Of a stretch of DNA of 64,000 bases, positions 1,823-41,574 are shown piece by piece. The position numbers were made by a program, and so were the translations under genes. This DNA is from a virus. Taxonomy: Duplodnaviria > Heunggongvirae > Uroviricota > Caudoviricetes. Location: positions 44,631 through 108,630 of the IMG/VR virus record IMGVR_UViG_2724679237_000005. One strand, written 5' to 3'. Positions within the stretch are counted from its first letter, which is position 1. Each line of letters opens with the position of its first letter. The notes beneath the pieces were generated by a model. It made no database searches, was not told where the DNA came from, and worked only from the letters and a program-made list of their open reading frames with translations.

Positions 1823-2356
1823 TATGCTGTCAGCGGTGAAATGTATGCTATCAGCGGCTATTTTTCTGAAAAGTATGCTGTGAACGGTTAAAGATATGCT
1901 ACCAGCGGTATAGTGAGATGAACGTATGCTGTGAGCGGTAAATCATCTATCACCACTCAATGCTCTGTCATACCTCCCCAGTGGTTACTAACCTCGAAGA
2001 GTGCATTCCATATAGGTTTGCGCTCACTAACATTCTATTGCTATTGCGCTGATTGCTTGTAGTGAAAGGCATTTATTGCCTGCTGCTCCTGATAGAACGT
2101 ATGCTGTCAGAGGTGTTTTATTGAGGAATTTTTGTTTGGATATGCTATCAGCGGTAATTAATGGCATATGTCAGACCTTCGTATGCTGCCAGCGGTAATT
2201 TTGTTCTGGTTATACCCATACCGGTACATATTATTCATGCAATGTCTTAAGTATGCTGTCAGCGGTAAAAAATCGAGTAAAGTATGCTGTGAGCGGTGAG
2301 ATAGACTCTCGATATGCTATCAGCGGCAGTTGATTGTGTATGCTGTCAGCGGTGAC
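1823..2356. repeat. downstream iteron array, about 12 copies, incA-like copy-control locus
   Basis: Copies of (G/A)TATGCT(G/A)(T/C)(C/G)AGCGGT at 1823, 1844, 1874, 1896, 1924, 2099, 2141, 2182, 2252, 2282, 2313, 2338; irregular spacing, first copy overlaps repA stop. Confidence 0.7.
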
Positions 2357-2400
2357 GACTATGAAATATGACTGCGGAACGAGCCGCAGTCAGTTTGCAT

Positions 2401-2613
2401 TTAGTGTATTTTCTTCAACAGACCCCAAAGTGTTCCGGCTTTTGTAGTCAGTTTTCCTGTTTCTGGATCGTACATACGCCATTCACGCCGCTGGTGGACG
2501 ATATACCCATCTTCACGTTCCAGACGCTCAAGAACGCCAGGCTGCTTGAAACCCTTAGCACGCCAGTATCCGCTTGTTTTCTCGATTTCCAGACCTGCTA
2601 GTGTTAATGCCAT
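2401..2613 (-). CDS. hypothetical small protein (70 aa)
   Basis: ORF in same orientation as and overlapping (ATGA-type junction) the next gene; no recognisable motif. Confidence 0.4.
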   Translation of the reverse strand: MALTLAGLEIEKTSGYWRAKGFKQPGVLERLEREDGYIVHQRREWRMYDPETGKLTTKAGTLWGLLKKIH

Positions 2614-2948
2614 TATCCAACCTCCTTGCAGTCATCGAAAAGGTAGCTTTGCTGAGAAGCGTGAACGCCATAGAAGCCCTTGTATTTGTTGTATACGAAG
2701 TGATCTTCTCCGACGCCGGTTAATTTGCCATTACGGTTTGTGAGATATGGGGATGACAATACTCGATCGTCACGCACAACATAGAACTGGTCGCCGCTGT
2801 CTACGACCATCGCGCCATATGGTGCTTTTATGACGTCGGTAAGAGCGCCATTCTTAACGTCGGCTACAGACATTTCACACTGATAAACAGTGGTGTCGGC
2901 CACAACGATCGAAGAAAGGAACAACAGCGCGAATGGGATGGCCTTCAT
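2613..2948 (-). CDS. hypothetical secreted protein (111 aa)
   Basis: N-terminal signal-peptide-like hydrophobic segment MKAIPFALLFLSSIVVA; no recognisable domain. Confidence 0.5.
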   Translation of the reverse strand: MKAIPFALLFLSSIVVADTTVYQCEMSVADVKNGALTDVIKAPYGAMVVDSGDQFYVVRDDRVLSSPYLTNRNGKLTGVGEDHFVYNKYKGFYGVHASQQSYLFDDCKEVG

Positions 2949-3124
2949 GCTGCCACCTCTTTGATTACATCAAATGCTGAATTAAATACGAGCACGATAG
3001 CCAAAGCGTTTATGACTACGTCGTTCACCGGGGAAAAGACTTTACGAATGACACCAGTGAAAATGCTGTCGATGACAAAAGCTATTGACACGATGAGTAA
3101 CAAGTATTCAATAAAAATCTTCAT
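2945..3124 (-). CDS. small membrane protein (59 aa), below ORF-track size cutoff
   Basis: ATG at complement 3122-3124, stop overlaps start of 2613..2948 gene (ATGA); two hydrophobic helices (MKIFIEYLLLIVSIAFVIDSIF...). Confidence 0.35.
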   Translation of the reverse strand: MKIFIEYLLLIVSIAFVIDSIFTGVIRKVFSPVNDVVINALAIVLVFNSAFDVIKEVAA

Positions 3125-3163
3125 GATAGGTAGATACTAACTTATATAAATTTTACTGTAAAC

Positions 3164-3439
3164 TCACTCAAAAGTGCTGATGCTTAAAATACGCTCAAGA
3201 TGTGCGGCATCTTCATCACTGATTTGTTGAGTCTCTTCTACGTACCAACAGTTGCCGTTATGCCAACAAACACCATCATCATCAACCATCACTGAATCAG
3301 CGTCATGACCTGTATATTCAACGAGAATACGCTGGATCAGCGCGTCAGTTTCCTCGTCGTTAAGGCCATTGGCTTTGACCATAAAAAGCGGAAACACGTC
3401 ATAGACAGTGCTGGTAACGATTCGAACTAAAACTCTCAT
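3164..3439 (-). CDS. hypothetical protein (91 aa)
   Basis: ORF with upstream ATAAGTA-type intergenic motif; acidic, no recognisable domain. Confidence 0.45.
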   Translation of the reverse strand: MRVLVRIVTSTVYDVFPLFMVKANGLNDEETDALIQRILVEYTGHDADSVMVDDDGVCWHNGNCWYVEETQQISDEDAAHLERILSISTFE

Positions 3440-3494
3440 GTATTTTTCCTTTTGTGGTTAGTGTTTACTTATTTTGTTAGTTATGAATAGGCGA

Positions 3495-3920
3495 TCAATC
3501 TTCTTGTTTAGGGAAAAACTGTTCAATAACTCTGTCAACGGCTGTGTCTATATGGAGTAGATGCCACACAACCATATCTTTGCTCCCCATGCCTTGTGTG
3601 AATATCACGTCATACTTACGCCATGCGCAGTGGAACCAATATGCTGAGTCATCAATTGGTAAATCCTCTCCCGCCTCTTTGAAGTATTTCAGCAGCATTG
3701 CTTGCTCTGCCGTTGGCGTTGGGCCTATTTCCTGAGCGTACATACGGATAAATCGCTGCCAGTCTGTCTCGTCGGTGGTCGGATCTGGTGGATTCATTTC
3801 GGCGATAGCGTTTCGTAGCTGATGCGCCCAATCAGGTTCAGGAAAGCCTTTTGATACTTCATCATCAATAACATCCAGAGCCGCGTTTGCGGCATCGTAG
3901 AGTTTCTTAATTGCTGCCAT
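3495..3920 (-). CDS. hypothetical protein (141 aa)
   Basis: ORF in operon orientation; no recognisable domain. Confidence 0.5.
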   Translation of the reverse strand: MAAIKKLYDAANAALDVIDDEVSKGFPEPDWAHQLRNAIAEMNPPDPTTDETDWQRFIRMYAQEIGPTPTAEQAMLLKYFKEAGEDLPIDDSAYWFHCAWRKYDVIFTQGMGSKDMVVWHLLHIDTAVDRVIEQFFPKQED

Positions 3921-7002: not shown

Positions 7003-8031
7003 TTACAGAGAGTCCAGCTCTCTCAGTAGGTCATCCAGACCTTCATCTTCCGTCGCAGATGCGGTTGCTACAGATGTCGCTGCGACTGCTTCAGACTCTT
7101 TGACTGATACGGCAACGGCAGCGGAACTTGCCTCTGGTTTAAATTCAGTTTCAACGGCACGGAGGATTTCTTCATCAACCAGACTGGTTGGTTCAGAAGC
7201 CGGTGTGTGCGCGGTTGCTACAGCCGTCGCTCCTTCTGTATGACCAGTGACAGAGCCAAATCCAGGTAGTGCCGCAGCCGATGTTTTCGCGGTTGAGGAA
7301 ATTGCTGGTGCAGATGCTGCGGCAGTTGGTGCAGCGATGCCAATCAGACGACCCATAGTGCGAACTGTCGACAGAAGACGAGTTTCATCAGCCTGATTTG
7401 CGTATGCGATCAGATCATGCTGGGTGTTCCAGAATTTATCTTCGATATCGCCTTTGTAGACTTTACGCTTAGGCGAGACGTCATATTTGGTATCGCGACC
7501 AGAGCCAGTACGTTTAATCAGGAATGCGTAGCCTTCCTCTTTGCTCAGTGGATTGCCGATATCATCAGCGATGTCTTCGGTGATTGCTTTGCAGATATCA
7601 TCGAATACAGTAGACGGCAGCTCGATTAACTGGCATTTCTCAGCATCTGCGAAATCCTCACGAGCAGAAAGAATGCCGTTGACCAGGTAGCGAGGAGTGG
7701 CACGCATTTGACCGATGCGTTCTTCCATTGCTTTGTTACCCTTGTGACGAGCGCGACCTTCCATCACCATTTCGCATAGCTGACAAGCGCGACCGTGAGT
7801 ATGTTGCTCACAAATATAAGCGTTGGTTGCTTCTTTACCTTCCTCGTTCTGATACTTAACGTAGTGCATACCGAAAGTCTGGAAGAACTTACCGTTTGGG
7901 TCGTCTTTATTCGGGAAGATGCGGATATAGTTGACGCCGTCTTTTAAGCGAGTCAGATCAACGTTGTTACCACGTTTGGCGGCAATGTCTTCACGAGTTT
8001 TGTTAAGCAAATCAAGTAATGTCTTAGACAT
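7003..8031 (-). CDS. putative ssDNA-binding protein (gp32-like)
   Basis: Cys/His cluster CEQHTHGRACQLC suggestive of a zinc site, Ala/Ser-rich linker and acidic C-terminal tail EDEGLDDLLRELDSL; position between recombinase and polymerase genes. Confidence 0.4.
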   Translation of the reverse strand: MSKTLLDLLNKTREDIAAKRGNNVDLTRLKDGVNYIRIFPNKDDPNGKFFQTFGMHYVKYQNEEGKEATNAYICEQHTHGRACQLCEMVMEGRARHKGNKAMEERIGQMRATPRYLVNGILSAREDFADAEKCQLIELPSTVFDDICKAITEDIADDIGNPLSKEEGYAFLIKRTGSGRDTKYDVSPKRKVYKGDIEDKFWNTQHDLIAYANQADETRLLSTVRTMGRLIGIAAPTAAASAPAISSTAKTSAAALPGFGSVTGHTEGATAVATAHTPASEPTSLVDEEILRAVETEFKPEASSAAVAVSVKESEAVAATSVATASATEDEGLDDLLRELDSL

Positions 8032-8148
8032 GTGTTTCTCCTTGTTGTGATTTGGCCGATGGCGCTATGCGCGTTGGGCTTTCGTTCATTCGTGGCTCTT
8101 TCGAGCTGTTAAATGATAGATCAGTACTTACTTATTATCTATCAAAAA

Positions 8149-8604
8149 TCAACGGGGAGTAATAAAGCGTTCAGAGCCTAATCGCTCTAATTCAACGATG
8201 GCCATCTTTGACGCCTGAACGATCATGTCTCGGCGATGCGAAAAGGCGGCGACAGCATGTTTGTATATGTCTGCGATGTGCCGTGCTTCATCCAACTTCT
8301 GCCGTTTAGACAGATACTGTGGGTTTGTTTTAACCTTAGCGTCCAGTACAGATTCGTTGAACTTAATGCCGTTCATACTCAAGTTCTTACGCTCTGTGTC
8401 GTATAGCTTTGCTTCAACAGCTTCAAGGTTAAGTTTTGCTTCTGCGACACTTCTTTCTGCATGGGCGAGTTTTGAGCCATATTCCATCAACAGGCGGGGT
8501 TGTCTACGCCAGACTTCTTCCAGATTGTCTCGGTCAAACTCGAGATCAGACATTATTTTCTCGTAAATATCGGCGATCATGCGCATTTCCTTATCACTTA
8601 TCAT
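8149..8604 (-). CDS. hypothetical protein (151 aa)
   Basis: ORF; coiled-coil-like; could be a recombination mediator by context only. Confidence 0.4.
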   Translation of the reverse strand: MISDKEMRMIADIYEKIMSDLEFDRDNLEEVWRRQPRLLMEYGSKLAHAERSVAEAKLNLEAVEAKLYDTERKNLSMNGIKFNESVLDAKVKTNPQYLSKRQKLDEARHIADIYKHAVAAFSHRRDMIVQASKMAIVELERLGSERFITPR

Positions 8605-8674
8605 TTTGTATTGATTATATCATTGTAATGATGAGGCAATGAGCTTGAAGATAGGGGGGGGAGGGGATAAGGGA

Positions 8675-8700
8675 AAACATGGCCTTTATGGCCATGTTTA
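8675..8700 (-). terminator. hairpin downstream of dnaE C-terminal fragment
   Basis: Perfect palindrome AAACATGGCC-TTTA-GGCCATGTTT; on minus strand stem is followed by UUUU. Confidence 0.45.
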
Positions 8701-8705
8701 TTGGA

Positions 8706-9875
8706 TCACGTCTTAATAGTTTCTGCTACGTCGGCTAATATCGCTTCTAGTCGTTCTCCCTCTTCAGGTCTGAAGTAAAGAATGTTGGGGTTAAACCCGT
8801 AAAAGACAGTAACGTCAAGGTCTGGAAGATACTCCTTCCTGCCGACCAAATCGGATGGCTTGTTTTTGTTGTTAAACAATGCCGTTGCCCGGCTGCCACA
8901 CGTCAGCACATAGGTCGGACGCACCAGATTGATCTCTTCACGTATAAAGTCGGTGAACTGGCCGATCTCGTCTTTGGTGTAGTCTTTTTCTTTGTCTTTA
9001 ACCTTCTTGCAAACGCCTGTGACATAGAGATCGCCCATGCGTAAATCTCCAGCCGTCAATAGCTTGGCCTTAAAGTCGTCGTATCCGTTCTCCATAAAGT
9101 AACCGGTTCGAGCATCATTGCCGTTCGCATTGTCCAGAATGATCATGATTTTCGGCTTAATACCAATGCTGGGGCGGATTAGTTCATCACCTAAGCCCAT
9201 TTCAGCCGCCATCCGCGTCATGAGTACGTTAATTTCAGCCGAACGTTTGGGGTTCATCTCAAACGAACGTGAGGCTTTAACTGCGTCTATGACAAGATTT
9301 CCCATCAATTCAGCCTGGTCGCGTAGGCGCTCTGGAGCAGTTGCTGGCAGACTACCTGGCTCGATGGATGCAAACGCCCCTACTTTTTGCAGCGATTCGC
9401 GCACTCGACTATTACAGGCACGTTTCTCGACAGCTTCTTCGAATTGCGCCAGTGACTCGAATTTGCCGCCAACTTTTTCTCGCGCTCTCATGATGGCTTG
9501 GCAGCCATTCTCAGAACACCCCTTCACAGCAGAGAATGGCGCATACAGCACCTGGCTGCCATCTTCAAGCGTGCGGATCTCGATTCGGTTAGATGACACG
9601 TTAACGTCTGGTGGCAATACGCGAATTCCATAGGTCAGCGCATCTTTAACCAGCCCTTGGTGTTTATCTTCGCCAAGAATAGTGAGAGCAGCAGCGAAAA
9701 ACTCTGCGGGATAATGAGTTTTCAACCACATAGATTGATAACTGATTAAGGAGTAAGCAACAGAGTGTGATTTGTTGAAGGCATACGCGCCGGATTTCTC
9801 AAACATATTCCAGATTTCTTCGGCTCGTTCGTGCGTCAGGCCATTGCTCTCTTCAACTACACTGGTAATTTTCAT
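8706..9875 (-). CDS. dnaE: DNA polymerase III alpha (DnaE), C-terminal fragment
   Basis: Contains the DnaE fingers signature AYAFNKSHSVAYSLISYQSMWLKTHYPAEFFAA; own ATG overlapping stop of HNH ORF. Confidence 0.8.
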   Translation of the reverse strand: MKITSVVEESNGLTHERAEEIWNMFEKSGAYAFNKSHSVAYSLISYQSMWLKTHYPAEFFAAALTILGEDKHQGLVKDALTYGIRVLPPDVNVSSNRIEIRTLEDGSQVLYAPFSAVKGCSENGCQAIMRAREKVGGKFESLAQFEEAVEKRACNSRVRESLQKVGAFASIEPGSLPATAPERLRDQAELMGNLVIDAVKASRSFEMNPKRSAEINVLMTRMAAEMGLGDELIRPSIGIKPKIMIILDNANGNDARTGYFMENGYDDFKAKLLTAGDLRMGDLYVTGVCKKVKDKEKDYTKDEIGQFTDFIREEINLVRPTYVLTCGSRATALFNNKNKPSDLVGRKEYLPDLDVTVFYGFNPNILYFRPEEGERLEAILADVAETIKT

Positions 9876-17200: not shown

Positions 17201-17587
17201 ATGTCTGACAACAAGATTGAATTTATAGAAAGTCGCTATGCTGCTTTTATCGCAGGGCTGATTGAATCCTCACCTATGAGTCAGGCCCAAATAGCCAGAC
17301 TTATTGGTTATAAAAATGCCAACAACCTTTCTTTAATTAAAAGTGGCAAAATTCCTTTGCCTATCGATAAGGTTCGTCCGCTGGCGCTGGCGCTGGGTAT
17401 TGAGCCAAGTCGTCTTATGATGATGGTGCTGGAAGAACGCCAACCTGAACTCGCAGCATTTTTATACAAAGAAGGCACCGCTCCTCTTAACGAGGACGAA
17501 AAACAGGTTCTTGCTGCATATAACGAGCGATTCGGTAAAGAGAAAGGCGCATCACAAAAGGTTGTTGAGGCCATAAAGTCTCTATGA
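17201..17587 (+). CDS. XRE-family helix-turn-helix transcriptional regulator (repressor-like)
   Basis: HTH segment SQAQIARLIGYKNANNLSLIKSG; convergent with the recombinase gene. Confidence 0.6.
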   Translation: MSDNKIEFIESRYAAFIAGLIESSPMSQAQIARLIGYKNANNLSLIKSGKIPLPIDKVRPLALALGIEPSRLMMMVLEERQPELAAFLYKEGTAPLNEDEKQVLAAYNERFGKEKGASQKVVEAIKSL

Positions 17588-18685: not shown

Positions 18686-18783
18686 ATGACAATCACCGAG
18701 TTACGCCGATGTACTGTATAAGTAAACAGTATATTAGGCATAGATTCTTATAGGATCAAGAGTAAAAGTAACTCATTTTCAGT

Positions 18784-18816
18784 AATGATTCCATACATAG
18801 TAGGTATGGAATCATT
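18784..18816. repeat. perfect 13-7-13 palindrome AATGATTCCATAC-ATAGTAG-GTATGGAATCATT
   Basis: Read directly; about 100 bp upstream of the recombinase start; followed on plus strand by a T-rich run, so it could alternatively act as a terminator hairpin. Confidence 0.6.
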
Positions 18817-18895
18817 TAGACGTTGTTTTTTGAATTTTAAGGGAAACAGGAGTGAGTTTGGTGGGAATAAAAACGGCTCCTGTGAGCCGTTTAAA

Positions 18896-19141
18896 TCAGA
18901 GGGTGCTGACGTATGCAGCCAGTTCTGTGTATCCGCCAATCGGTTGGCCATCGATCAGTACCTGGGGGATAGTCTCTACCGGTTTACCAACAATTTCACT
19001 AAGTTTTTCCTTGTCGATACCGGCAGTGGTGATGTCGATGTACTCATAATCACCGTAGCCATGTCCCTTTAGTTGCTTCGCCAGCTCGACCGCACGTTTG
19101 CAGTATGAGCAGTTATCTCGTCCGTAGATAGTGATCGTCAT
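18896..19141 (-). CDS. glutaredoxin-like protein
   Basis: Active-site CSYC in MTITIYGRDNCSYCKRA; ORF-track start at 19219 is probably too far upstream, the ATG at complement 19139-19141 gives an ~81-aa protein. Confidence 0.7.
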   Translation of the reverse strand: MTITIYGRDNCSYCKRAVELAKQLKGHGYGDYEYIDITTAGIDKEKLSEIVGKPVETIPQVLIDGQPIGGYTELAAYVSTL

Positions 19142-19315
19142 TGTTACCTCATAGAATTGATATGCAACTTTACTTACAAAGAAGATAGGTATGTGCATAC
19201 TTATCATTGCAGTCTGCATTATAAAGCTATTAAAGCCTCGATCAATCTATTAATTAAGGCATTGTTTGGTTAACATTACCCTAATATTTTATAGTTAGTA
19301 GAGTGAAATACATAC

Positions 19316-20578
19316 ATGCCTTTTTTAATTTTCATTATTATACTACTGCTCACCGTGATTTTTTGGGATTGGGTTGTTTTAAATGGTCAAATTGTTGGAA
19401 CATTGGCTACAGCATTTGCTTTTATAGCAACAGCATGGAATGCCTACGAAGCGAGAAAAAGTGCAAAAGCAGCTTTTTCAGCCCTTCAATTAACAACAGA
19501 ATCATTGTTCGAAATGCGAAAGAGTGCATTTAAACAATGGTTTGATTCCTTATTAAATCAACATGATGAGCTATGTCTTCTTGCAAAACAAATTATCGAT
19601 AAACGCAAAGTTAATTTAAACAGCGATGAGTTACATAGACTATATTACCCATTGGTAAAACAGCATGAGGTAATACAGTATGTGAAGCATATTATTAATA
19701 TTTTTGAGTATGTGGATAGTTCATTTTATATTGATGGGGAATGTCTAAAGGAAAAAAGAGCGTATGTGTCACAATTAATTTTCAAAATCCCACCTCAGAT
19801 GAAGTTGATCATTGCTATCTTTGGATTAAAAATCGATTATTGTGAACATATTAATTCGGGAAAACTGTGTTGTTTATTGAATAAATATGATTTTTTCAAT
19901 GATGAAATATTTTTTGATGATGCTTATTCAGATATGCCTTATCTGGATGCATTCATAAACCTTAGATTCAACAAAATATTCAAATCTCGAATGATAAATT
20001 ATTTTGATAATATCATTAAAAGTTATTATGTTCCATCGGACGTTAAAAGGGACTGGATGTTTCGAAACCCAAAGCTCGTGCCGTCGGTTCTTATGAATTA
20101 TAAAACTCCTTGTTCTCCTATAATTAATGATTACTTTGAGAAGTTGCCTTTACATGTAAGAAACTACTTTGAGGAACTACTTAAAACCGCGAATGATAGA
20201 GTTACTCATTTTGACGTTTACATCCCACGCCTTATTGGTTGTTCAATCGTGCAACATTACGAAGATGTGCCTTCCGAAAAAAACAGGTTAAATGACAGGA
20301 ATGATGTAATAGCTATGGCTGAAGATTACATCGAGAAAAGAAAATATAATCAACTGGATTACATACTTGAAGATATATACTTCAAGAGTGACGAAGATAT
20401 AATCCCTGGCCACCATTTGATTGTGGCATTTGATGACTATGAATTTAAATTATCACTCATTAAGATAAATGAGAATAAAGATAGCGATAATCTTTTAAAT
20501 CGAATTTATACTGAATCCAGTAGCATGGTTAAAGAATATAAGCGCGAAATATTAAAACTGGGCGACTATGTAAAGTAA
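19316..20578 (+). CDS. AT-rich accessory gene: membrane-anchored 420-aa protein of unknown function
   Basis: Plus-strand among minus-strand genes; markedly AT-rich codon usage; two N-terminal hydrophobic helices (FLIFIIILLLTVIFWDWVVL, IVGTLATAFAFIATAW); own terminator; no recognisable catalytic motif. Confidence 0.6.
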   Translation: MPFLIFIIILLLTVIFWDWVVLNGQIVGTLATAFAFIATAWNAYEARKSAKAAFSALQLTTESLFEMRKSAFKQWFDSLLNQHDELCLLAKQIIDKRKVNLNSDELHRLYYPLVKQHEVIQYVKHIINIFEYVDSSFYIDGECLKEKRAYVSQLIFKIPPQMKLIIAIFGLKIDYCEHINSGKLCCLLNKYDFFNDEIFFDDAYSDMPYLDAFINLRFNKIFKSRMINYFDNIIKSYYVPSDVKRDWMFRNPKLVPSVLMNYKTPCSPIINDYFEKLPLHVRNYFEELLKTANDRVTHFDVYIPRLIGCSIVQHYEDVPSEKNRLNDRNDVIAMAEDYIEKRKYNQLDYILEDIYFKSDEDIIPGHHLIVAFDDYEFKLSLIKINENKDSDNLLNRIYTESSSMVKEYKREILKLGDYVK

Positions 20579-20595
20579 ATTGCACTGTTCAACAA

Positions 20596-20624
20596 AAAAG
20601 GGGCCGAAGCCCCTTTGAATTTTG
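20596..20624 (+). terminator. rho-independent terminator of the AT-rich gene
   Basis: AAAAGGGGC-CGAA-GCCCCTTT stem-loop followed by TTTGAATTTT. Confidence 0.6.
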
Positions 20625-20690
20625 CGCTGAAAAAAGTGTTGCTAGGATGTTAGCAAGCTATGGTTAAGAACGTCTGCCGTAATTATCTAT

Positions 20691-20770: not shown

Positions 20771-20857
20771 TGGCGGAGAGTAATGGAATCGAACCATCAT
20801 CGTTTGCACAATGGGACGGTTTTCAAGACCGCTTGAGCACCATGCTCCCTACTCTCC
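20771..20857 (-). tRNA. tRNA-Ser (anticodon TGA)
   Basis: Hand-folded: acceptor GGAGAGT/ACTCTCC, anticodon arm GCGGT-CTTGAAA-ACCGT, long variable arm, T-loop GGTTCGATTCC, 3' GCCA encoded. Confidence 0.75.
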
Positions 20858-21177
20858 AGCTATTGTGATGGTCGGTGCTGAACTCCGACACAGGGTTGTA
20901 GCAAGCCCCGCAAAGCGCGCACTACTGTAGTTGCGGCACATCAGCCTGTGCATTCATCACAATGGTAAGATCACTACCTTTCGACCAGTCATTGTGCACA
21001 TGAACGACGATTAACCGTAATGATATTATCGTTGTGTTGTGAAGCCAGATGCTTATCTTCTGGTTGCTTCAAAGAGCTGCACTTCCTCACAACGGTAAGA
21101 GCACTGGTCTGACTCTATCGATTTACGGCCTTGTGGGTCAGTATCGCCGATTCGCCCAATGCTCTTACCTGTTGTGT

Positions 21178-21253
21178 TGGTGCCGGTTAACGGACTTGAA
21201 CCGCTGGCCATTCGCTTACAAAACGACTGCTCTACCAACTGAGCTAAACCGGC
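21178..21253 (-). tRNA. tRNA-Thr (anticodon TGT)
   Basis: Hand-folded: acceptor GCCGGTT/AACCGGC, D-arm GCTC-AGTTGGTA-GAGC, anticodon loop TTTGTAA, T-arm AGCGG-TTCAAGT-CCGTT, CCA encoded; one mismatch at top of anticodon stem. Confidence 0.7.
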
Positions 21254-21257
21254 AATT

Positions 21258-21344
21258 TGGTGGGGAGTGATGGAGTCGAACCACCCGAGTCGCCATGACA
21301 GTAGATTTACAGTCTACACCGCTACCTCTACGGACTAACTCCCC
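21258..21344 (-). tRNA. tRNA-Tyr (anticodon GTA)
   Basis: Hand-folded: acceptor GGGGAGT/ACTCCCC, anticodon arm GTAGA-CTGTAAA-TCTAC, long variable arm, T-loop GGTTCGACTCC, CCA encoded. Confidence 0.8.
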
Positions 21345-21349
21345 TAAAT

Positions 21350-21424
21350 TGGCGATGGTGGGTGGATTCGAACCACCGACCAGTTGGTTAACAGCCAACT
21401 GCTCTACCGCTGAGCTACACCATC
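21350..21424 (-). tRNA. tRNA-Asn (anticodon GTT)
   Basis: Hand-folded: acceptor GATGGTG/CACCATC, D-arm GCTC-AGCGGTA-GAGC, anticodon arm GTTGG-CTGTTAA-CCAAC, T-arm GGTGG-TTCGAAT-CCACC, CCA encoded. Confidence 0.8.
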
Positions 21425-22160: not shown

Positions 22161-22202
22161 TATACATAAAAGATAAGTAAGTAAACACTTATCGCTGTGT
22201 TT

Positions 22203-25653: not shown

Positions 25654-25778
25654 ACCAACTCCTAGCTAACGGATGAAAGTATTCTTACAAAAACTTAAGT
25701 ATGTATCTACTTATCATTTTAGATGCAATAGTTCTTTATACTAAGATGCCGGGCATATCCTCAGCCCAGCATTCACCT

Positions 25779-26192
25779 TTAATGAGCTACAGCCTCACTG
25801 TTGCACATCTTTCTGTAGACCTGCTTATAACGCTGTAAATCATGAGGATCATTAGGTGCCAACGACTTCGATAGGATTTTGTATACCACCCCTTTTGAAA
25901 ACATGCCCTTTGGCTTCATTTCGAGTTCAACAACATATGAGTGATAGCCCACGTATGCACCAAAGCCATTTTTGGCGTTTAATTCACCACACACAAAGCC
26001 TGTCACACTCCCATCATCATGATCAGTCCTGACAAACTTATCTTTCCTAAACATCACCGACGTGGGATCTTTCATATCATCCGCAATTGCCTGTTGGCCC
26101 AGAGTAATAGCCTTCTCGTCTGTAGGCTTACACCCAACTAATGCAAACAAAGACAATAAAGCACCTGTTAAAATCAACTTCTTTTTGCTCAT
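25779..26192 (-). CDS. lipoprotein (137 aa)
   Basis: Signal peptide with lipobox LVGC (MSKKKLILTGALLSLFALVGC). Confidence 0.55.
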   Translation of the reverse strand: MSKKKLILTGALLSLFALVGCKPTDEKAITLGQQAIADDMKDPTSVMFRKDKFVRTDHDDGSVTGFVCGELNAKNGFGAYVGYHSYVVELEMKPKGMFSKGVVYKILSKSLAPNDPHDLQRYKQVYRKMCNSEAVAH

Positions 26193-26422: not shown

Positions 26423-27568
26423 ATGAAATACATAAAACCTTCATCGTTGCTGGCATTAACTTTGCTTTTTAGCTCTGGATTCGTTAACGCAGACAATAAA
26501 CAAACGCTGATAGAAGCCGCTAACGCAGGTGATACCGCAGCACAAAGTGAGTTAGGGACAAATTATTTGGATGGTGTCAATGGTTTTGATAAGGATGTAG
26601 TTGAGGCCAAGAAGTGGATTGATCTCGCTGCAGAAAAGGGAGATAAAGTAGCATATTATGCACTTGGAGTTATGTACACATTTGGCGAGGGTGTAGATAA
26701 AGACCTAAATAAAGCTGTTGAGTACTACAAACTTGCGGGGGATGCTCGTGAAGGTAGAGCCTACAACAATCTTGGTGCTATTTATCAAAAGGGGATGCTT
26801 GGTAAAGTAGATCATGCACTCGCCATTAAATACTTCAAACTAGCCTCTGATGCCGGGTATGTTAAAGCAACTTCAGTTCTTGGGGCGTATTACCAATATG
26901 GTAAAGGCGTTCAAAAGAATTATAAAAAGGCTTTTACTTATTACAAAAAGGCGGCAGACCAAGGCAGTTCAGAAGCTATGATAGGATTAGGAATACTATA
27001 CGATGATGGGTTAGGCGTTAAACGCAATGATGCAGAAGCAGTTAAGTGGTATAAAAAGGCAGCGGAACTTGGAAACGCCGACGCCATAACCAATCTTGGC
27101 ATTATGTATGAGAATGGGGAAGGAGTAAAAAAGGACTATAAAAAAGCAGCCGACCTTTATCAGACTGCTTGCAATAAAGGAGAAAAAAGAGGCTGTGAAT
27201 ACATTACTGAACTGAAAGAAAGCGGAAAATATCGAGTATCTGATTCCAAAGCCAAATCAAAATCAGATGTACAGCGACTTATTGCTAAATCCATTGATAA
27301 AGGCGTTAACGCAACTTTTACCTGGCAAGGTGATGACGCCACATTCACCGCTAATGGCGGCAAAATTGACTGCACTTTCCTAAAGGATTTTTCAGAGAAA
27401 GGAGGCAATCTGGCTACCTCGTTTGTTTGCACCGATAACGTTCAAATCATCCTGAAGCAATTCAGAGATACCAAGAATGCCTACCTCGCGGTAATGACTG
27501 ACAACTTCAACACAGAAGTTAAATCATTTTCGGTCAATGTTTACGTGACTAATACTGGTTCAAACTAA
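26423..27568 (+). CDS. secreted Sel1-repeat (TPR-like) protein with unknown C-terminal domain
   Basis: Signal peptide then at least six Sel1-like repeats (e.g. AYYALGVMYTFGEGVDKDLNKAVEYYKLA, AMIGLGILYDDGLGVKRNDAEAVKWYKKAA); plus-strand, lower GC. Confidence 0.7.
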   Translation: MKYIKPSSLLALTLLFSSGFVNADNKQTLIEAANAGDTAAQSELGTNYLDGVNGFDKDVVEAKKWIDLAAEKGDKVAYYALGVMYTFGEGVDKDLNKAVEYYKLAGDAREGRAYNNLGAIYQKGMLGKVDHALAIKYFKLASDAGYVKATSVLGAYYQYGKGVQKNYKKAFTYYKKAADQGSSEAMIGLGILYDDGLGVKRNDAEAVKWYKKAAELGNADAITNLGIMYENGEGVKKDYKKAADLYQTACNKGEKRGCEYITELKESGKYRVSDSKAKSKSDVQRLIAKSIDKGVNATFTWQGDDATFTANGGKIDCTFLKDFSEKGGNLATSFVCTDNVQIILKQFRDTKNAYLAVMTDNFNTEVKSFSVNVYVTNTGSN

Positions 27569-30958: not shown

Positions 30959-31065
30959 CTGGTAGGTAGTTACTTACTTATCACAATGAGCGGATGATAG
31001 CGACTGGTGGCAGTTTTTGGAAGTGGAAACGGAAGGGAGTTGTTCTGGTGGTGTCTTTTAAAAGA

Positions 31066-31230: not shown

Positions 31231-31998
31231 ATGGACGATTTATCGGTATACGCGAGATCATTGGATAAGGCTAAATACTATGTTTACTGTCTCTATGATA
31301 CAGAAGACAAGATGAAAAGACCGTTTTACATAGGAAAAGGCAAATCGACTCGTTGTCTCGATCACATCAAGTATCCCGATGACTCTCCCAAATCCATGCG
31401 GATCAAAGAACTTTTGGCTAATAAAAAATTAGGCATAGATATTCTTCGTCATGGTATGGATGAAACCACAGCCAAACTTGTTGAGGCGACATGCATCGAC
31501 CTTATGGGGGTCGGAGAGCTTACGAATAAGGTTCGAGGAAGTGGTTCCATGATGGGCAGAATATCACTGGACGCCTACCATCACTTAGTGCTGCAAGAGG
31601 AAACTGAAATTGCTCCTGAGCACGCCGGTCTTGCCTTCCTGCTAAACAGCACCTACAAGTCAGGAATGTCCGCTCTGGCATTATATGAAGCTACGCGTGG
31701 CGTATGGGCAAAGGTTCCAAGAGACGAGAATCTCAAATATGCCTACGCTACATATGGTGGGCTGATAATGGAAGTTTATCAGATTGAATGCTGGGTCAAA
31801 GCCGGTTCTCAGCAGTACTTTACAAGGGATATAGCTCTTGGCCCCGACACAAAACGTTATGAATTTGTTGGCAGAATAGCCGATGAGCATATTAGAAAAC
31901 TGTATGTAGGCAAATTAATCAAGAAGCCACCAAGCTACGGTAGCCCTTTTGTGAAGGTTGGGATGGTTAGGACTGAACATAGTGTTAGCGCGGCATAA
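31231..31998 (+). CDS. GIY-YIG nuclease domain protein (free-standing homing-endonuclease-like)
   Basis: YVYCLYD...PFYIGKGKS...R...E motif arrangement of GIY-YIG domain at N-terminus; plus-strand, own terminator. Confidence 0.6.
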   Translation: MDDLSVYARSLDKAKYYVYCLYDTEDKMKRPFYIGKGKSTRCLDHIKYPDDSPKSMRIKELLANKKLGIDILRHGMDETTAKLVEATCIDLMGVGELTNKVRGSGSMMGRISLDAYHHLVLQEETEIAPEHAGLAFLLNSTYKSGMSALALYEATRGVWAKVPRDENLKYAYATYGGLIMEVYQIECWVKAGSQQYFTRDIALGPDTKRYEFVGRIADEHIRKLYVGKLIKKPPSYGSPFVKVGMVRTEHSVSAA

Positions 31999-37275: not shown

Positions 37276-40200
37276 TTATTCTTTAGGTGAATTTAACTTC
37301 GTTTCAAGCTCCTCAACCCTTTTGGTCAATTGCTGAATATGATGAATGAGTGGTACAACCAAACGCTCATACATCACTCCTTCAGCGACCATACCATTTG
37401 AGGAAATATCTCCTGGAGAATCATTATTTGTTGGTTCACGCCAATGGACATATTGCGGGGCAATCTCACCAACCTCTTCAGCAATAAGGCCGTAATACCC
37501 CCAATCCTTTCGGTCACCTCGACAAATTGAACGATACCAAACAGGTCTTAATGACAAAAGTTCATCAGCATATCGATCTTGTAATGTTTCAATATCCTTT
37601 TTATAGCGCCTTGAAGATGTTGAACGCCAAACTGTATTGATACCTGGGTTTGGATCAATGTACATATTGGCACCGCTAGTAGTTGTGCCAATATCCCATA
37701 TAGCAAACCCTCCACTACCGCCTGATTTGACAACCAGTGTTTCAGCAATAATATCCAGGTTGCCACTATAGCCTGTCAGTGATGATCTGCTTGCATAGGA
37801 ACTTAGAAGGTTTGTTACCTCTGTTTTCGTATAAGCATTAAGGTTAGCCGCAGTCAAAGTAATATCGGCAGAGCCATCAAACGCCACACCAGCAATTTTC
37901 CTTGCTGTCTGCAATTTTGTGGCTGTTGCGGCATTACCAGTAGTATTCTGATTACCGGTTGTATTCACACCAGGGATTGAATCCTTAGCGGTATATACCT
38001 GCGCCCACGCTGACCATGCCGCATCAGTGGTATCTCTTCTGGAGCGAATGAAAACCGGCGCATGTGCACCGCTCGTACCACTCCAGCCAATAAGCAACTC
38101 GCCCTCACCAGCAGCACTCGCACCTTTCATGTGCAATACGTTGCCATACGTGGTCGGGTAGCTATTGTTGTACGCCTCGTACATTTGAATGCCAGCAGTA
38201 CCTTGAGTAGAACCGCTTAAAGCCGTAACTCGACCACGAGAAACCAATGTATTAATATTGATATCACCTGAACCATCAAACTTAACACCATTGATGTTTC
38301 TCGCTGTTTGCAACTTCGTAGCTGTTGAAGCATTGCCATTCAAGCTACCATTTACGCCACCAGTAACATTTAGTCCATTACCAATAGACACAACACCGCT
38401 GCTATTATTAATTATAATCGGTCGCAAACTGTTCCATGAACCTAACGTATCTCCTGATGCTGTTAGCATGAAATATGTGCTGCCGCCGTCATTACGGATA
38501 AAGAACCCGTAGTTACCGTAAGCAATGCGGAAACCATTTGCATATTTTGAAACGATCTCACCAGAAGACGTTAACCCTCCAGATAATGTGCCACCTGAAA
38601 GCGGTAATGCTCCTACATCAGAAGCTGTTGGTTTGTTTCTAGTGTTATAAGAACGACGCCAGCCTGGTGCATAATCACTTCCATTGTACACATAAATAAA
38701 TTCCGCATTGTTAACACCACCATGACCCGATGTTGTTGTCGTTGTAACACGAATAGTGTAGTGGCTTGTTGCCTTATTACTAAACACCTCAATCACGGAA
38801 CCAGATAGATCGATCCTACCGCAACCAGTGTCGTCTATATAATTATTGTTGGCGTAAGTCCATGAGCACCGTGCGATCCAATGTTTGTTTGTAAATGCCC
38901 CCTGATTATTTAGCCAAGTTATAAATTGAGCAGTCGTAAATGCCGTTCCGTTACCACTATTTAACCATCCAGCGGCAGCGGTTGGCGCGTTTATATCAGC
39001 CGGCTGAGGCATAAATCCAGTCGTGTAAACCTGCTCCCAACCACTTTCAAAACCATAGCCATCTCTTGAGGAACGGTAGAACAGACCACCATTTTTATAG
39101 TGAGCTTTAATTTGAAGCGTACGGCAACTACCTACACCGGTATAAAAGTTGGCAAGAATATAACTGTCGCCTGTTCTAGTTACATTGTAAGCACCAGATT
39201 CAGCATTCCACGGCACGCCACCATCAGCATCCGCATATGACCCTGTTGCCCTTCTTGCGAAAGCGGCAACATGCGCAGCGGTTAAAGTGATATCAGTAGA
39301 ACCATCAAATGGAACACCGGATATTTTTCTTGCAGTCTGAAGTTTTGTAGCAGTTGCAGCATTACCAGTGGTGTTCTGATTACCCGTAGTGTTTACACCT
39401 GGAAGGTTGATATTTGCAGAACCGTCGAAACCAACTCCACCGATAGATCTTGCCGTCTGCAATTTCGTTGCTGTACTTGCATTACCATTTAATGTTCCGG
39501 TGATCCCACCAGTAACAGACAACGGACCTGAAACTGTTCCTCCGGTTGTTGGCAGTGCTCCAATATCTAACGGCGTCGGTTTCTGATGTGTGCTATACAT
39601 CGTATAAACAACACCATCGGTAACGCTGGAAGGCTTACTCGCTGAATATGTTGGCGATGTATAAATAGAAACTGACGCATTTGCAGTACAATCCCAATGG
39701 ATATTTACACTCGTCGCATAATTGCCAATTTCAACGTAAATATCATATGTATCGCCGGATGTGTTGATCCAGGCGAAATTCGTTAATCCGACAGCTGTAC
39801 GCTTCCACAAAGCACCTGTAATCCCTTTGGGGTTTCCATTGCCTGCTCGTAGAACCAGTTCTGAAATGCCTGCCTGATGTGGGGAGCCGACGTTGTAACC
39901 AGCGCCACCAATCAATGCGATGTAAACGATGGAACTCGCTTGTGGCATTGTAACAGTAGCCAGTTTGAACCACCCGGCCCCGCCAGAGAAAGACATCGTT
40001 ATTGAATTTAAAGTACCAATATCTTTCGGCGTTAATGTGATATCCGCAGTCAGTGCTTTCCCGTTAATTTTTCGGTTAGATGGCACCCTGCTGTTCGCAT
40101 TGTCATTGACTACTTTAACTGCTTTTGGCGTTGCGGCCAGCGATTCACTGGTGCTGTCGACAGCACTGCTAAGTTTCACAACACCTTTAGTTGTAAGGCT

Positions 40201-41574
40201 TGCGTCTTCCATCGCAACTGCACCGGCAATCTCTTCAGCACGATCAGCAGCAGCTTCCGCACGGGTCGCAGCGGATTCAGCAGCAGTTTTGCTCTGAGAT
40301 GCTGCCGTCGCACTGCCTGCCGCCTCTGTTGCTTTCGTGGATGCCGTCGTGGCGCTGCCCTTCGCTGCTGACGCCTGTCTGGTCGCCTCATCTTTTGAAG
40401 CAGACGCAGATGATGCCGATGACGCTGCCGAACTGGCGGACGATGCGGCTGCCGTTTTTGAGGATTCTGCACGGGTTTCCGACGCTTTCGCGTTCGTTTC
40501 GGATGTCTTCGCTGCGGAAGCAGACCTCGCTGCTGCGCTGGCCTGTTCAGTGGCTTCGCCAGCCTTCGTTGTGGCTGTTGAAGCAGACGATGCGGCACTT
40601 TCTGCCGATTTTCCGGCGGCGGTGGCACTGGCTGAGGCCTGCCCGGCACTTGTTGACGCGGCACTGGCAGACGACGCAGCCGCTGTTTTTGAGCCTGCCG
40701 CAGCCGAGGCGCTCTGTCCCGCTGCCGTTTCAGAAGACCTGGCGTTCGTCTCGGACGTTTTTGCCGCCTTCGCGGAATTTCCTGCCGCCGTTGCCGAGGA
40801 AGCGGCATTACTGGCGCTCGAGGCTGCGCTCGTTTCTGATGATTTCGCTGCCTCTTTTGAGGCCGCCGCATCCCGGGCTGAGGTGGCAGCTTCTGACGCC
40901 TTCGTGGTCGCGGTGGATGCAGAAGTGGCTGCAGATTTTTGTGACGCTGCAGCATTCGTTTCAGACGTTTTCGCGGCACCGGCACTGGTGGCCGCCGCGC
41001 TTTTTGAGGACTCTGCAGCGGATGCACTTTGAGACGCTTGAGAGGCTTTTTCTCCAGCGGTATTGGCGCTTTCTGCTGCTGCGGCAGCACTGGCCGCCGC
41101 CTCACGAGCTTTGTCGCCAGCAGCATCAATCGCGTCAGTGTTATTTTTATACCACTCAACGTTTTCGTTGTGCTCGTTGACGATCTGCATTAGCGGCTTA
41201 ACGGTCACTTCTGTACCGTCTTCACGCTCGATTGTCACCTCATCCAGAGCAGTCAACCAACTGCGCATGGACTTGGAATCAGCCGACATACGCGACATTA
41301 GTGCTGTAAAGCGCGCGCTAAACTGTGTTAAGTCGCCTTCATAGGTCGTAATGATTCGGCACGGAACTTCAGACTGAGTTTCGCCGGTATAAGGTTCTGA
41401 GAGAACAATGTTCGTATCACTGGTTACGCGCTTGATCTCATACAGCTTATTGTCGGGGCCAATGACGATCATCCCCGGCAACACACCATTAGCTGTTACG
41501 TTCCAGGCTGTCCCTGCCCCAACCAGAGTATTGCTGCCCTGTGTAAATGTGATAGTACCTTCCCTGTACCACAT
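37276..41574 (-). CDS. stf: side tail fibre (lambda Stf-like) with C-terminal intramolecular chaperone domain
   Basis: Long Ala/Ser/Thr-rich segment closely resembling lambda Stf (AAKTSETNAAASQKSAATSAS...), five or more fibre repeats GNASTATKLQTAR-IxGV-FDGS, C-terminal SSRRYKKDIETL...YGLIAEEV chaperone-like domain. Confidence 0.85.
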   Translation of the reverse strand: MWYREGTITFTQGSNTLVGAGTAWNVTANGVLPGMIVIGPDNKLYEIKRVTSDTNIVLSEPYTGETQSEVPCRIITTYEGDLTQFSARFTALMSRMSADSKSMRSWLTALDEVTIEREDGTEVTVKPLMQIVNEHNENVEWYKNNTDAIDAAGDKAREAAASAAAAAESANTAGEKASQASQSASAAESSKSAAATSAGAAKTSETNAAASQKSAATSASTATTKASEAATSARDAAASKEAAKSSETSAASSASNAASSATAAGNSAKAAKTSETNARSSETAAGQSASAAAGSKTAAASSASAASTSAGQASASATAAGKSAESAASSASTATTKAGEATEQASAAARSASAAKTSETNAKASETRAESSKTAAASSASSAASSASSASASKDEATRQASAAKGSATTASTKATEAAGSATAASQSKTAAESAATRAEAAADRAEEIAGAVAMEDASLTTKGVVKLSSAVDSTSESLAATPKAVKVVNDNANSRVPSNRKINGKALTADITLTPKDIGTLNSITMSFSGGAGWFKLATVTMPQASSIVYIALIGGAGYNVGSPHQAGISELVLRAGNGNPKGITGALWKRTAVGLTNFAWINTSGDTYDIYVEIGNYATSVNIHWDCTANASVSIYTSPTYSASKPSSVTDGVVYTMYSTHQKPTPLDIGALPTTGGTVSGPLSVTGGITGTLNGNASTATKLQTARSIGGVGFDGSANINLPGVNTTGNQNTTGNAATATKLQTARKISGVPFDGSTDITLTAAHVAAFARRATGSYADADGGVPWNAESGAYNVTRTGDSYILANFYTGVGSCRTLQIKAHYKNGGLFYRSSRDGYGFESGWEQVYTTGFMPQPADINAPTAAAGWLNSGNGTAFTTAQFITWLNNQGAFTNKHWIARCSWTYANNNYIDDTGCGRIDLSGSVIEVFSNKATSHYTIRVTTTTTSGHGGVNNAEFIYVYNGSDYAPGWRRSYNTRNKPTASDVGALPLSGGTLSGGLTSSGEIVSKYANGFRIAYGNYGFFIRNDGGSTYFMLTASGDTLGSWNSLRPIIINNSSGVVSIGNGLNVTGGVNGSLNGNASTATKLQTARNINGVKFDGSGDININTLVSRGRVTALSGSTQGTAGIQMYEAYNNSYPTTYGNVLHMKGASAAGEGELLIGWSGTSGAHAPVFIRSRRDTTDAAWSAWAQVYTAKDSIPGVNTTGNQNTTGNAATATKLQTARKIAGVAFDGSADITLTAANLNAYTKTEVTNLLSSYASRSSLTGYSGNLDIIAETLVVKSGGSGGFAIWDIGTTTSGANMYIDPNPGINTVWRSTSSRRYKKDIETLQDRYADELLSLRPVWYRSICRGDRKDWGYYGLIAEEVGEIAPQYVHWREPTNNDSPGDISSNGMVAEGVMYERLVVPLIHHIQQLTKRVEELETKLNSPKE

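Follow-up and report, generated by a model that had tools for sequence, protein, structure and literature searches.

The Locus and Its Gene

The stretch of DNA analyzed in this study, in the following called the window, comprises 64,000 nucleotides of a virus of the Caudoviricetes and corresponds to positions 44,631 to 108,630 of the IMG/VR record IMGVR_UViG_2724679237_000005. Coordinates without further designation refer to this window. Between the glutaredoxin gene grxA and a tRNA cluster it contains an open reading frame (ORF) on the plus strand which probably encodes a divergent, membrane-anchored protein of the AbiC/AbiP family of abortive infection proteins. The features of this locus are compiled in Table 1.

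The GC content of the ORF is 32.1% and that of its third codon positions (GC3) is 29.7%, compared to 46.4% GC for the whole window. For the 43 ORFs of at least 120 amino acids the mean GC content is 46.9% (standard deviation 3.3) and the mean GC3 is 46.8% (standard deviation 5.5). Among all 1263-nt stretches of the window the ORF itself shows the lowest GC content (z = -4.2), followed by a stretch with 38.9% at approximately position 26141. The other plus-strand ORFs, listed as far as they start with ATG, encode at least 120 amino acids and were retained by a simple gene call, are located at 608-1822, 17201-17587 (128 amino acids), 26423-27568, and 31231-31998.

A preliminary description of this DNA had reported an ORF of 420 codons that is strongly AT-rich relative to the other genes, is preceded by an AT-rich region and encodes a membrane-anchored protein with two N-terminal hydrophobic helices and without any recognizable motif. 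These features were confirmed. The ORF is present as described, and the GC computation places it lowest in the window. The upstream positions 19220-19315 have a GC content of 27%, and hydropathy and an AlphaFold2 (AF2) model agree on the two membrane helices. Direct searches of the window protein against Pfam, NCBIfam, PADLOC, and the protein sequences of the PDB yielded no match above threshold. In the Pfam scan only ATP-synt_I appeared, with an E-value of 0.34. The sole strong direct match was phrog_18168 (2.5e-214), a family of unknown function, and a tblastn search of 50,697 phage records with the window protein gave no match.

Table 1: Coordinates of the abiC/abiP-like gene, its encoded protein regions and the surrounding features in the window.
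Feature	Coordinates	Strand	Remarks
abiC/abiP-like gene	19316..20578	+	ATG start, 420 aa, 49.8 kDa, isoelectric point (pI) 6.0
Replaceable cargo cassette, grxA to tRNA cluster	~19153..20590		blastn versus relatives with other cargo
Two-helix membrane hairpin, transmembrane helices TM1 (~aa 2-22) and TM2 (~aa 24-44)	19319..19447	+	Hydropathy, AF2
Juxtamembrane stalk helix, aa 45-83 (YEARKSAKAA...FKQWF..LLNQH)	19448..19564	+	Top conservation
Equivalent of Pfam putAbiC core, aa ~113-200	19652..19915	+	PF16872 matches of relatives at aligned positions
Variable middle and C-terminal alpha/beta part, aa 201-420	19916..20575	+	Lowest conservation; proposed sensor
AT-rich divergent intergenic region, grxA (-) to abiC-like gene (+)	19142..19315		174 nt
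Operator-like palindrome GATAGGTATG-TG-CATACTTATC	19184..19205		Directly downstream of minus-strand -10 box
GC-rich hairpin, likely bidirectional intrinsic terminator, part of backbone	20597..20616		8 pairs, scan calls minus strand

A Divergent Member of the AbiC/AbiP Family

A word-indexed protein search with the window protein retrieved seven clusters only, and their alignment was used as a profile seed. The exhaustive HMMER search with this seven-homologue profile revealed 67 clusters among 1.84 billion protein representatives, while little was gained by repeating the word-indexed search with the alignment. Among the 51 full-length aligned members, 39 matched the Pfam family putAbiC (PF16872; best E-value 1.4e-11), 8 matched the PADLOC model of AbiC and 5 that of AbiP. 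The full-length relatives P0024, P0028, and P0029, which are found with E-values of 6e-36 to 1e-24 against the window profile, score 32.7, 36.2, and 45.1 bits, respectively, with PF16872 and thus exceed its gathering cut-off of 22 bits. The nearer relatives lie on or under this cut-off (P0009, 22.0 bits; P0016, 19.5 bits; P0014, 19.2 bits; P0007, 18.0 bits). The PF16872 matches span residues 132-207 in P0009, 122-200 in P0014, and 130-210 in P0029.

The two ends of this chain were also compared directly. An hhalign comparison of the 15-member subfamily of the window protein with 12 members with a recorded PF16872 hit gave a probability of 100% and an E-value of 7.9e-51 over 314 columns. The aligned part corresponds to residues 1-315 of the window protein and comprises the membrane hairpin, the stalk, the putAbiC core, and the middle region; the C-terminal approximately 105 residues beyond residue ~315 remained unaligned with the canonical group. 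A tblastn search with the window protein detected a Pantoea plasmid gene annotated as "putative phage abortive infection protein" (E-value 6e-8). In the reverse direction the consensus of the canonical group matched the window allele with an E-value of 2e-4; the same consensus gave no Lactococcus match in tblastn. The 51-member profile found nothing significant among the PDB sequences. The similarly named Abi_C domain of the AbiJ-type HEPN RNases is a different family and was discarded as not relevant.

Judged by transitive and profile-profile homology, the window protein is, at the superfamily level, a very divergent member of the AbiC/AbiP (putAbiC) family. The earlier designation of the protein as undescribed can therefore not be maintained.

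Architecture and Conservation of the Protein

The hydropathy profile of the protein has maxima at residues 1-28 and 19-38, with a strongly hydrophobic TM1 and a milder TM2. The AF2 model calculated from 51 sequences reached a predicted local distance difference test score (pLDDT) of 91.6; an initial 7-sequence model of low confidence (pLDDT 62) was set aside in its favor. Helices were predicted for residues 2-15 and 17-22 (TM1) and for residues 24-97, where TM2 runs on into the stalk. The C-terminal part contains short strands at residues 310-312, 355-357, and 362-364. Hydropathy and model both display the arrangement of the AbiC/AbiP group, an N-terminal transmembrane anchor followed by a helical soluble domain. 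The soluble part of approximately 375 residues is mildly acidic (pI 5.9).

Conservation is distributed very unevenly along the chain. It peaks in TM2 and the stalk with 0.58-0.62 mean identity to the window protein within the subfamily; the stalk alone reaches 0.62 in the 15-member subfamily and 0.42 over all 51 members. Most invariant columns of the subfamily alignment fall within residues 32-75. The minimum is found at residues 84-112 and 201-420, where the subfamily identity drops to 0.19-0.23 (0.19-0.21 for residues 201-420, with a family identity of 0.13). Within the core, Y122, F193, and F194 are invariant across the 51 sequences. In TM2 and the stalk small residues recur at every third to fourth position (T32, A35, A38/T39, A43, A46, S49/A50, A53, A56, and T60), a spacing that suggests tight helix-helix packing and oligomerization.

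An Exchangeable Cargo Slot in a Phage-Plasmid

The region is 96-99.7% identical to non-mobilizable E. coli plasmids of approximately 105-120 kb and to the Escherichia phages Cyrano and CMS-2020a. The neighboring genes encode CobT/CobS-like proteins, a helix-turn-helix regulator, a tyrosine integrase, the glutaredoxin GrxA, the tRNA cluster, a DNA ligase, a primase, and a DnaB-type helicase. This gene set identifies the element as an SSU5-like phage-plasmid. In complete E. coli genomes all matches (169/169) are located on plasmids.

In relatives grxA has a length of 246 nt, which places it at 18896-19141 on the minus strand of the window; position 19142 is the base directly following its start codon. 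Comparison by blastn with relatives carrying other cargo showed that the backbone homology stops at 19130-19152, that is, at the grxA start codon, and resumes at 20591-20594 shortly before the hairpin. The element encoding P0007 (L013) is nearly isogenic with the window, since its flanks are 98.3% and 98.2% identical, and its gene product shares 31% of its amino acids with the window protein. Here the junctions lie at ~19176 and 20591, and inside the gene the DNA can be aligned just at 19409-19473, in the coding region of TM2 and the stalk. With respect to the stalk, 19408-19566 is the one region in which divergent alleles can still be aligned as DNA. Where the flanks are shared, the window allele (at least 86% identity) occurs in 37 of 243 plasmid records and in 39 of 168 E. 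coli genomes. Overall, the gene occupies approximately 15-25% of the slots.

Other relatives contain different cargo. Phage Cyrano and a Shigella sonnei plasmid carry a Gp49-family gene that forms an operon with grxA. In Klebsiella and other elements one or more Gp49-family genes occur together with phoH and an abiC-like allele. The slot of the relative L002 holds an unrelated 302-aa orphan; the idea that it is a truncated homologue was rejected on the basis of a BLASTP E-value of 0.97. In the E. coli relative L004 two minus-strand genes are present (2280-3068 and 3100-3681 of that locus), one of which encodes a 262-aa protein matching the PADLOC candidate PDC-M68A (5.9e-25), endonuclease effectors of the cyclic oligonucleotide-based antiphage signaling system (CBASS), and the SduA N-terminus. 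Its partner is a 193-aa orphan.

The position had been proposed as a variable cargo site of a phage-plasmid, and the relatives with their divergent alleles or unrelated cargo agree with this proposal. Direct or inverted repeats were sought at the cassette junctions and none were found; the simplest reading is therefore that cassettes would be exchanged by homologous recombination in the flanks. With its fixed junctions (~19141-19176 and 20591) and its alternative cargo, some of it of the defence type, the slot has the properties of a defence hotspot of mobile elements. AbiC was not among the systems reported in a published DefenseFinder survey of such elements (10.1101/2025.09.12.675607), which covered the SSU5-like group.

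Alleles of the gene in the same slot of SSU5-like elements are strongly diverged. In E. coli they include P0007 (31% identity) and P0005 (55%). A Klebsiella allele is 36% identical, and P0008 (33%) stems from SSU5-like contigs of approximately 108 kb from metagenome assemblies. Homologues were detected by tblastn in 138 plasmid records, 101 of them under 60% identity and 95 covering at least 80% of the protein. These plasmids are mostly non-mobilizable and belong to Escherichia, Klebsiella, Enterobacter, and Salmonella, and among the matches listed many have a size of 105-115 kb. An SSU5-type integrase of at least 80% identity is encoded in approximately 785 plasmid records. All alleles examined, down to 30% identity, are AT-rich (31-39% GC versus 43-51% for the rest of the locus). 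Low GC content is therefore a maintained trait of the family and not the mark of a recent import. The preliminary description had regarded the gene as a lone compositionally foreign island, a view that was not upheld, since the same slot holds AT-rich alleles in SSU5-like elements of all four genera. The reading frame was intact in 4/4 sequenced alleles examined, and the ratio of nonsynonymous to synonymous substitution rates (dN/dS) among close alleles was 0.23-0.34, which indicates purifying selection.

Neighborhoods of Distant Homologues

A canonical putAbiC homologue (36 bits) is located at 8001-9317 of the locus L018, a P1-like phage-plasmid, beside ddrB, darA, and lydB. AbiC-like genes are thus a recurrent cargo of at least two groups of phage-plasmids. 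Another homologue lies in an integrase-bearing island together with an AAA_15/21 ATPase, an HNH protein, and DndB, and this island is also found on a Pantoea plasmid. A search for related loci with the 15-sequence alignment yielded three chromosomal loci. In Siccibacter (L007, 4037-5506, minus strand) the homologue adjoins a SEFIR/TIR protein, in Lelliottia (L006, 7746-9777, minus strand) an AAA_15/21 ATPase with a 331-aa partner, and in Pantoea (L008, 4842-5579, minus strand) an N6/N4 DNA methylase. Judged by gene content, these chromosomal loci look like defence islands. The neighborhoods of the homologues point to a role in defence, in the sense of guilt by association and not of proof.

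Upstream Region and Terminator

The intergenic region upstream of the gene contains a sigma-70-like site on the minus strand, reading from 19245 to 19218 (TTGATC-16-TATAAT, 10/12 matches). The palindrome next to it is upstream of both genes, at a distance of 43 nt from the grxA start codon and 111 nt from the ATG of the abiC-like gene. Its consensus GATARGTA-N6-TACYTATC occurs five times in the window (3125-3146, 19184-19205, 22172-22193, 25694-25715, and 30961-30982), while 0.01 occurrences are expected. Each of the five is intergenic and precedes either minus-strand genes or the minus-strand tRNA cluster; at three of them the start codon is 12-45 nt away. The palindrome was kept upstream of every divergent allele examined. 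We infer from this distribution that it may be the operator of an element-encoded regulator, acting on the promoter on the grxA side and possibly also on the divergent abiC-like gene. The gene had been credited with an AT-rich upstream region of its own. The AT-richness is real; the exclusivity is not, as the region also contains the promoter-like site of grxA and the recurring operator-like palindrome.

A similar correction applies to the terminator, which had been described as clean and private to the gene. A hairpin is indeed present, and it is called on the minus strand by the scan. On that strand it is followed by the T-run TTTTTTGTTG and forms the better terminator; the plus-strand tail TTTGAATTTTG is interrupted. 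Since the hairpin is part of the flank that the window has in common with relatives containing other cargo, it belongs to the backbone and is located outside the cassette. Most plausibly it terminates the minus-strand tRNA transcript and can serve plus-strand cargo as well. The interval between this hairpin and the minus-strand tRNA-Ser gene also contains, immediately 3' of the latter, a 20-nt inverted repeat (20691-20710/20749-20768) with 95% complementarity and a loop of 38 nt.

Further Observations in the Window

A second variable slot lies between the integrase gene and grxA. In the window (18686-18895) no cargo occupies it. In other SSU5-like elements it contains the gene of a YafO-family toxin together with an ORF of 202-205 amino acids (L009, 5083-6111; L013, 6450-7478; L019, 749-1786), and in phage Cyrano (L001, 4952-5506) it holds a 184-aa orphan. 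Between the integrase start and grxA a near-perfect palindrome of 33 bp (AATGATTCCATACATA-T-TAGGTATGGAATCATT; 18784-18816) was kept in all relatives checked. It may be a recombination or resolution site of the integrase or an integrase operator.

The tRNA cluster (20771-21424) varies among relatives. The window encodes tRNAs for Ser, Thr, Tyr, and Asn, and Cyrano those for Ser, Thr, and Asn. The spacer between tRNA-Ser and tRNA-Thr (20873-21171) is missing in Cyrano, and positions 20976-21155 are missing in L004. A scan of the region with Rfam found nothing beyond the tRNAs.

The second most AT-rich gene of the window is the plus-strand ORF 26423-27568 (381 amino acids, GC 40.7%, GC3 35.6%). 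Its counterpart in relatives has Sel1 repeats and is missing from some of them; it may thus be accessory, too. At 40001-41000 the GC content rises to 58.4% with a strong AT skew of -0.317. This spike lies within the minus-strand ORF 37276-41574 of 1432 amino acids, and probably reflects a segment of biased composition or with repeats in a large virion protein.

Proposed Function and Alternatives

Taking family membership, architecture, and the cargo slot together, we consider it likely that the ORF encodes a divergent membrane-anchored abortive infection-type protein of the AbiC/AbiP family, carried as exchangeable cargo in an SSU5-like phage-plasmid of E. coli, in the slot that extends from grxA to the tRNA cluster. 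Its most likely function would be that of an anti-phage protein at the membrane, in which the conserved membrane and stalk region would serve as the effector and the variable part as the sensor. Defence or abortive infection had already been proposed for the gene, and the homology to the family, the defence-type cargo, and the defence genes next to homologues make it the most likely function.

In a lysogen such a protein would counteract heterologous phages that infect the cell. The variable cytoplasmic part (residues ~201-420 and the tip formed by residues 84-112) might recognize a phage product, and the signal could then travel through the conserved TM2 and juxtamembrane stalk to a response executed at the membrane. 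As a result, the infection would be blocked late. Either the membrane would be compromised, or the production of late (capsid) proteins or the early-to-late switch would be curtailed, as reported for lactococcal AbiC/AbiP. The AbiC protein of Lactococcus lactis leaves phage DNA replication unaffected and reduces the production of capsid protein (PMC13064643). An AbiP-like mode of action based on nucleic acid binding may be less likely, as the mildly acidic soluble part does not favor it.

Several observations weigh against this interpretation. The window protein itself gave no putAbiC match even at E ≤ 1, and the PADLOC scan returned 0 families at E ≤ 10, with the AbiC hidden Markov model (HMM) included. 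The founding AbiC and AbiP of L. lactis are connected to it only indirectly, via the PADLOC AbiC and AbiP models that match its relatives. Out of the 46 alignment columns whose conservation reaches at least 80% in the 36 more canonical members, the window protein keeps 19. The retained residues are mostly hydrophobic or aromatic (A43, F72, L79, L80, Q82, H83, L113, Y122, Y150, S152, I158, I166, A167, L188, F193, F194, F199, Y262, and P265). Substituted are the canonical polar residues H116, R124, H128, R155, S156, N160, D161, N169, and H196 (window numbering, letters giving the residues of the canonical members). The canonical core motifs GH..SPYMR.LYH, KKY.S..RS.I.ND, N, and FFEH are not preserved as such, and Y122, Y150, S152, F193, F194, and Q82-H83 are what is still present of the core-motif residues. 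It is because of the replaced polar set that the published HMMs overlook the protein, and an activity relying on these residues has probably been changed or lost. Furthermore, a lactococcal protein resembling AbiC (38% identity) conferred no resistance to the phages tried (PMC11381338). In 19142..19315 no plus-strand promoter scored above the scan threshold. Finally, the step at the membrane is purely what we infer, because the mechanism of AbiC and AbiP is unknown.

A more far-reaching version of the proposal is conceivable, and we hold it only tentatively. According to it, the slot would contain an unrecognized, fast-diversifying AbiC/P-like clade with two transmembrane helices. TM2 and the stalk would form an oligomeric effector, and swapped C-terminal halves would set the specificity towards phages or rival phage-plasmids. 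As the polar motif has been lost, the mechanism of this clade would differ from that of canonical putAbiC proteins.

The same membrane hairpin could also belong to a protein for superinfection exclusion or kin discrimination, acting at the entry or membrane stage against competing SSU5-like phage-plasmids or phages, with the alleles as specificity types. Alleles of 31-55% identity in almost identical backbones are what is expected of specificity types, and in E. coli the gene is confined to phage-plasmids. Known exclusion proteins such as T4 Imm, P22 SieA, and HK97 gp15 are small, whereas the soluble part alone has approximately 375 residues here. Moreover, homologues are also found in chromosomal defence-like neighborhoods and on non-phage plasmids, and the unaffected phage DNA replication places lactococcal AbiC after entry (PMC13064643). 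Altogether, exclusion appears improbable. We also regard it as unlikely that the gene encodes an accessory membrane protein outside phage defence, be it a lysogenic conversion factor for envelope physiology or a helper in the life cycle of the element. This would accommodate the missing polar residues of canonical putAbiC and the upstream palindrome, which connects the region to the regulatory circuit of the element. It fits poorly with a dispensable gene of low slot occupancy that is replaced by unrelated cargo including a defence-type nuclease, and with homologues that adjoin defence genes. The large allelic diversity, with a conserved N-terminal and a variable C-terminal part, would likewise be more typical of conflict genes.

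Decay or silencing of an AT-rich relic without current function could be suspected from the base composition, from the lack of a strong plus-strand promoter, and from the loss of the canonical family residues. The intact frames of all four alleles examined and their dN/dS values, the 95 plasmid records covering most of the protein, the confident AF2 model, and the low GC content common to all alleles down to 30% identity speak against it. A relic is thus very improbable, and the divergent AbiC/AbiP-type defence protein remains our preferred interpretation.

Significance

For AbiC, known since 1992 (Durmaz et al. 1992, cited in PMC13064643), and for AbiP neither a mechanism nor structural relatives have been established to date. 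The clade found here brings the family into phage-plasmids of E. coli, an organism amenable to genetics and to the use of phage panels. Should the tentative reading as a fast-diversifying clade be true, this would provide the first genetically tractable E. coli model for the AbiC/P family. The series of alleles in near-identical backbones constitutes a natural experiment for mapping the part that sets specificity. Current defence finders miss a cargo that recurs in a clinically widespread group of elements; an AbiC-like gene is present in 138 plasmid records and an SSU5-type integrase in approximately 785. Should an anti-phage effect be absent, the finding shrinks to the annotation of a divergent orphan.

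Comparison with Known Systems

Proteins with a conserved N-terminal two-helix hairpin are also known from the SLATT families and from the 2TM effectors of CBASS. In the window protein, too, the hairpin is the conserved part, which would suit an effector acting on the membrane. This likeness is an analogy only. One relative of the window protein matches SLATT_1 faintly and not significantly (E-value 0.23), and, in contrast to the situation of the CBASS 2TM effectors, no cyclase or other signaling partner is encoded nearby.

The AbiP protein of L. lactis, treated as AbiC/P in PMC13064643, is likewise membrane-anchored and has a soluble domain related to that of AbiC. The relative P0029 matches the AbiP model with an E-value of 1.1e-4 at profile positions 113-211 of 223. 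AbiP differs from the window protein in having one transmembrane helix, where AbiC has two, and in its documented binding of RNA and single-stranded DNA (PMC13064643).

AbiC (Prf) from the L. lactis plasmid pTN20 is the closest counterpart in design. Both are encoded by a single AT-rich gene on mobile elements and combine two N-terminal transmembrane helices with a helical soluble domain to which no fold can be assigned. In contrast to AbiC, the window protein falls below the threshold of every published model and has a C-terminal part that does not align with the canonical group, and its gene resides in an enterobacterial phage-plasmid instead of a lactococcal plasmid.

The slot itself resembles the P2/P4 hotspots (PMC13586616) and the accessory loci of P1, where alternative, mostly AT-rich anti-phage cargo is likewise swapped at a fixed position among near-identical backbones. 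Compared to the P2/P4 hotspots, it is located in the SSU5 supergroup and is often filled by divergent alleles of one family rather than by unrelated systems only.

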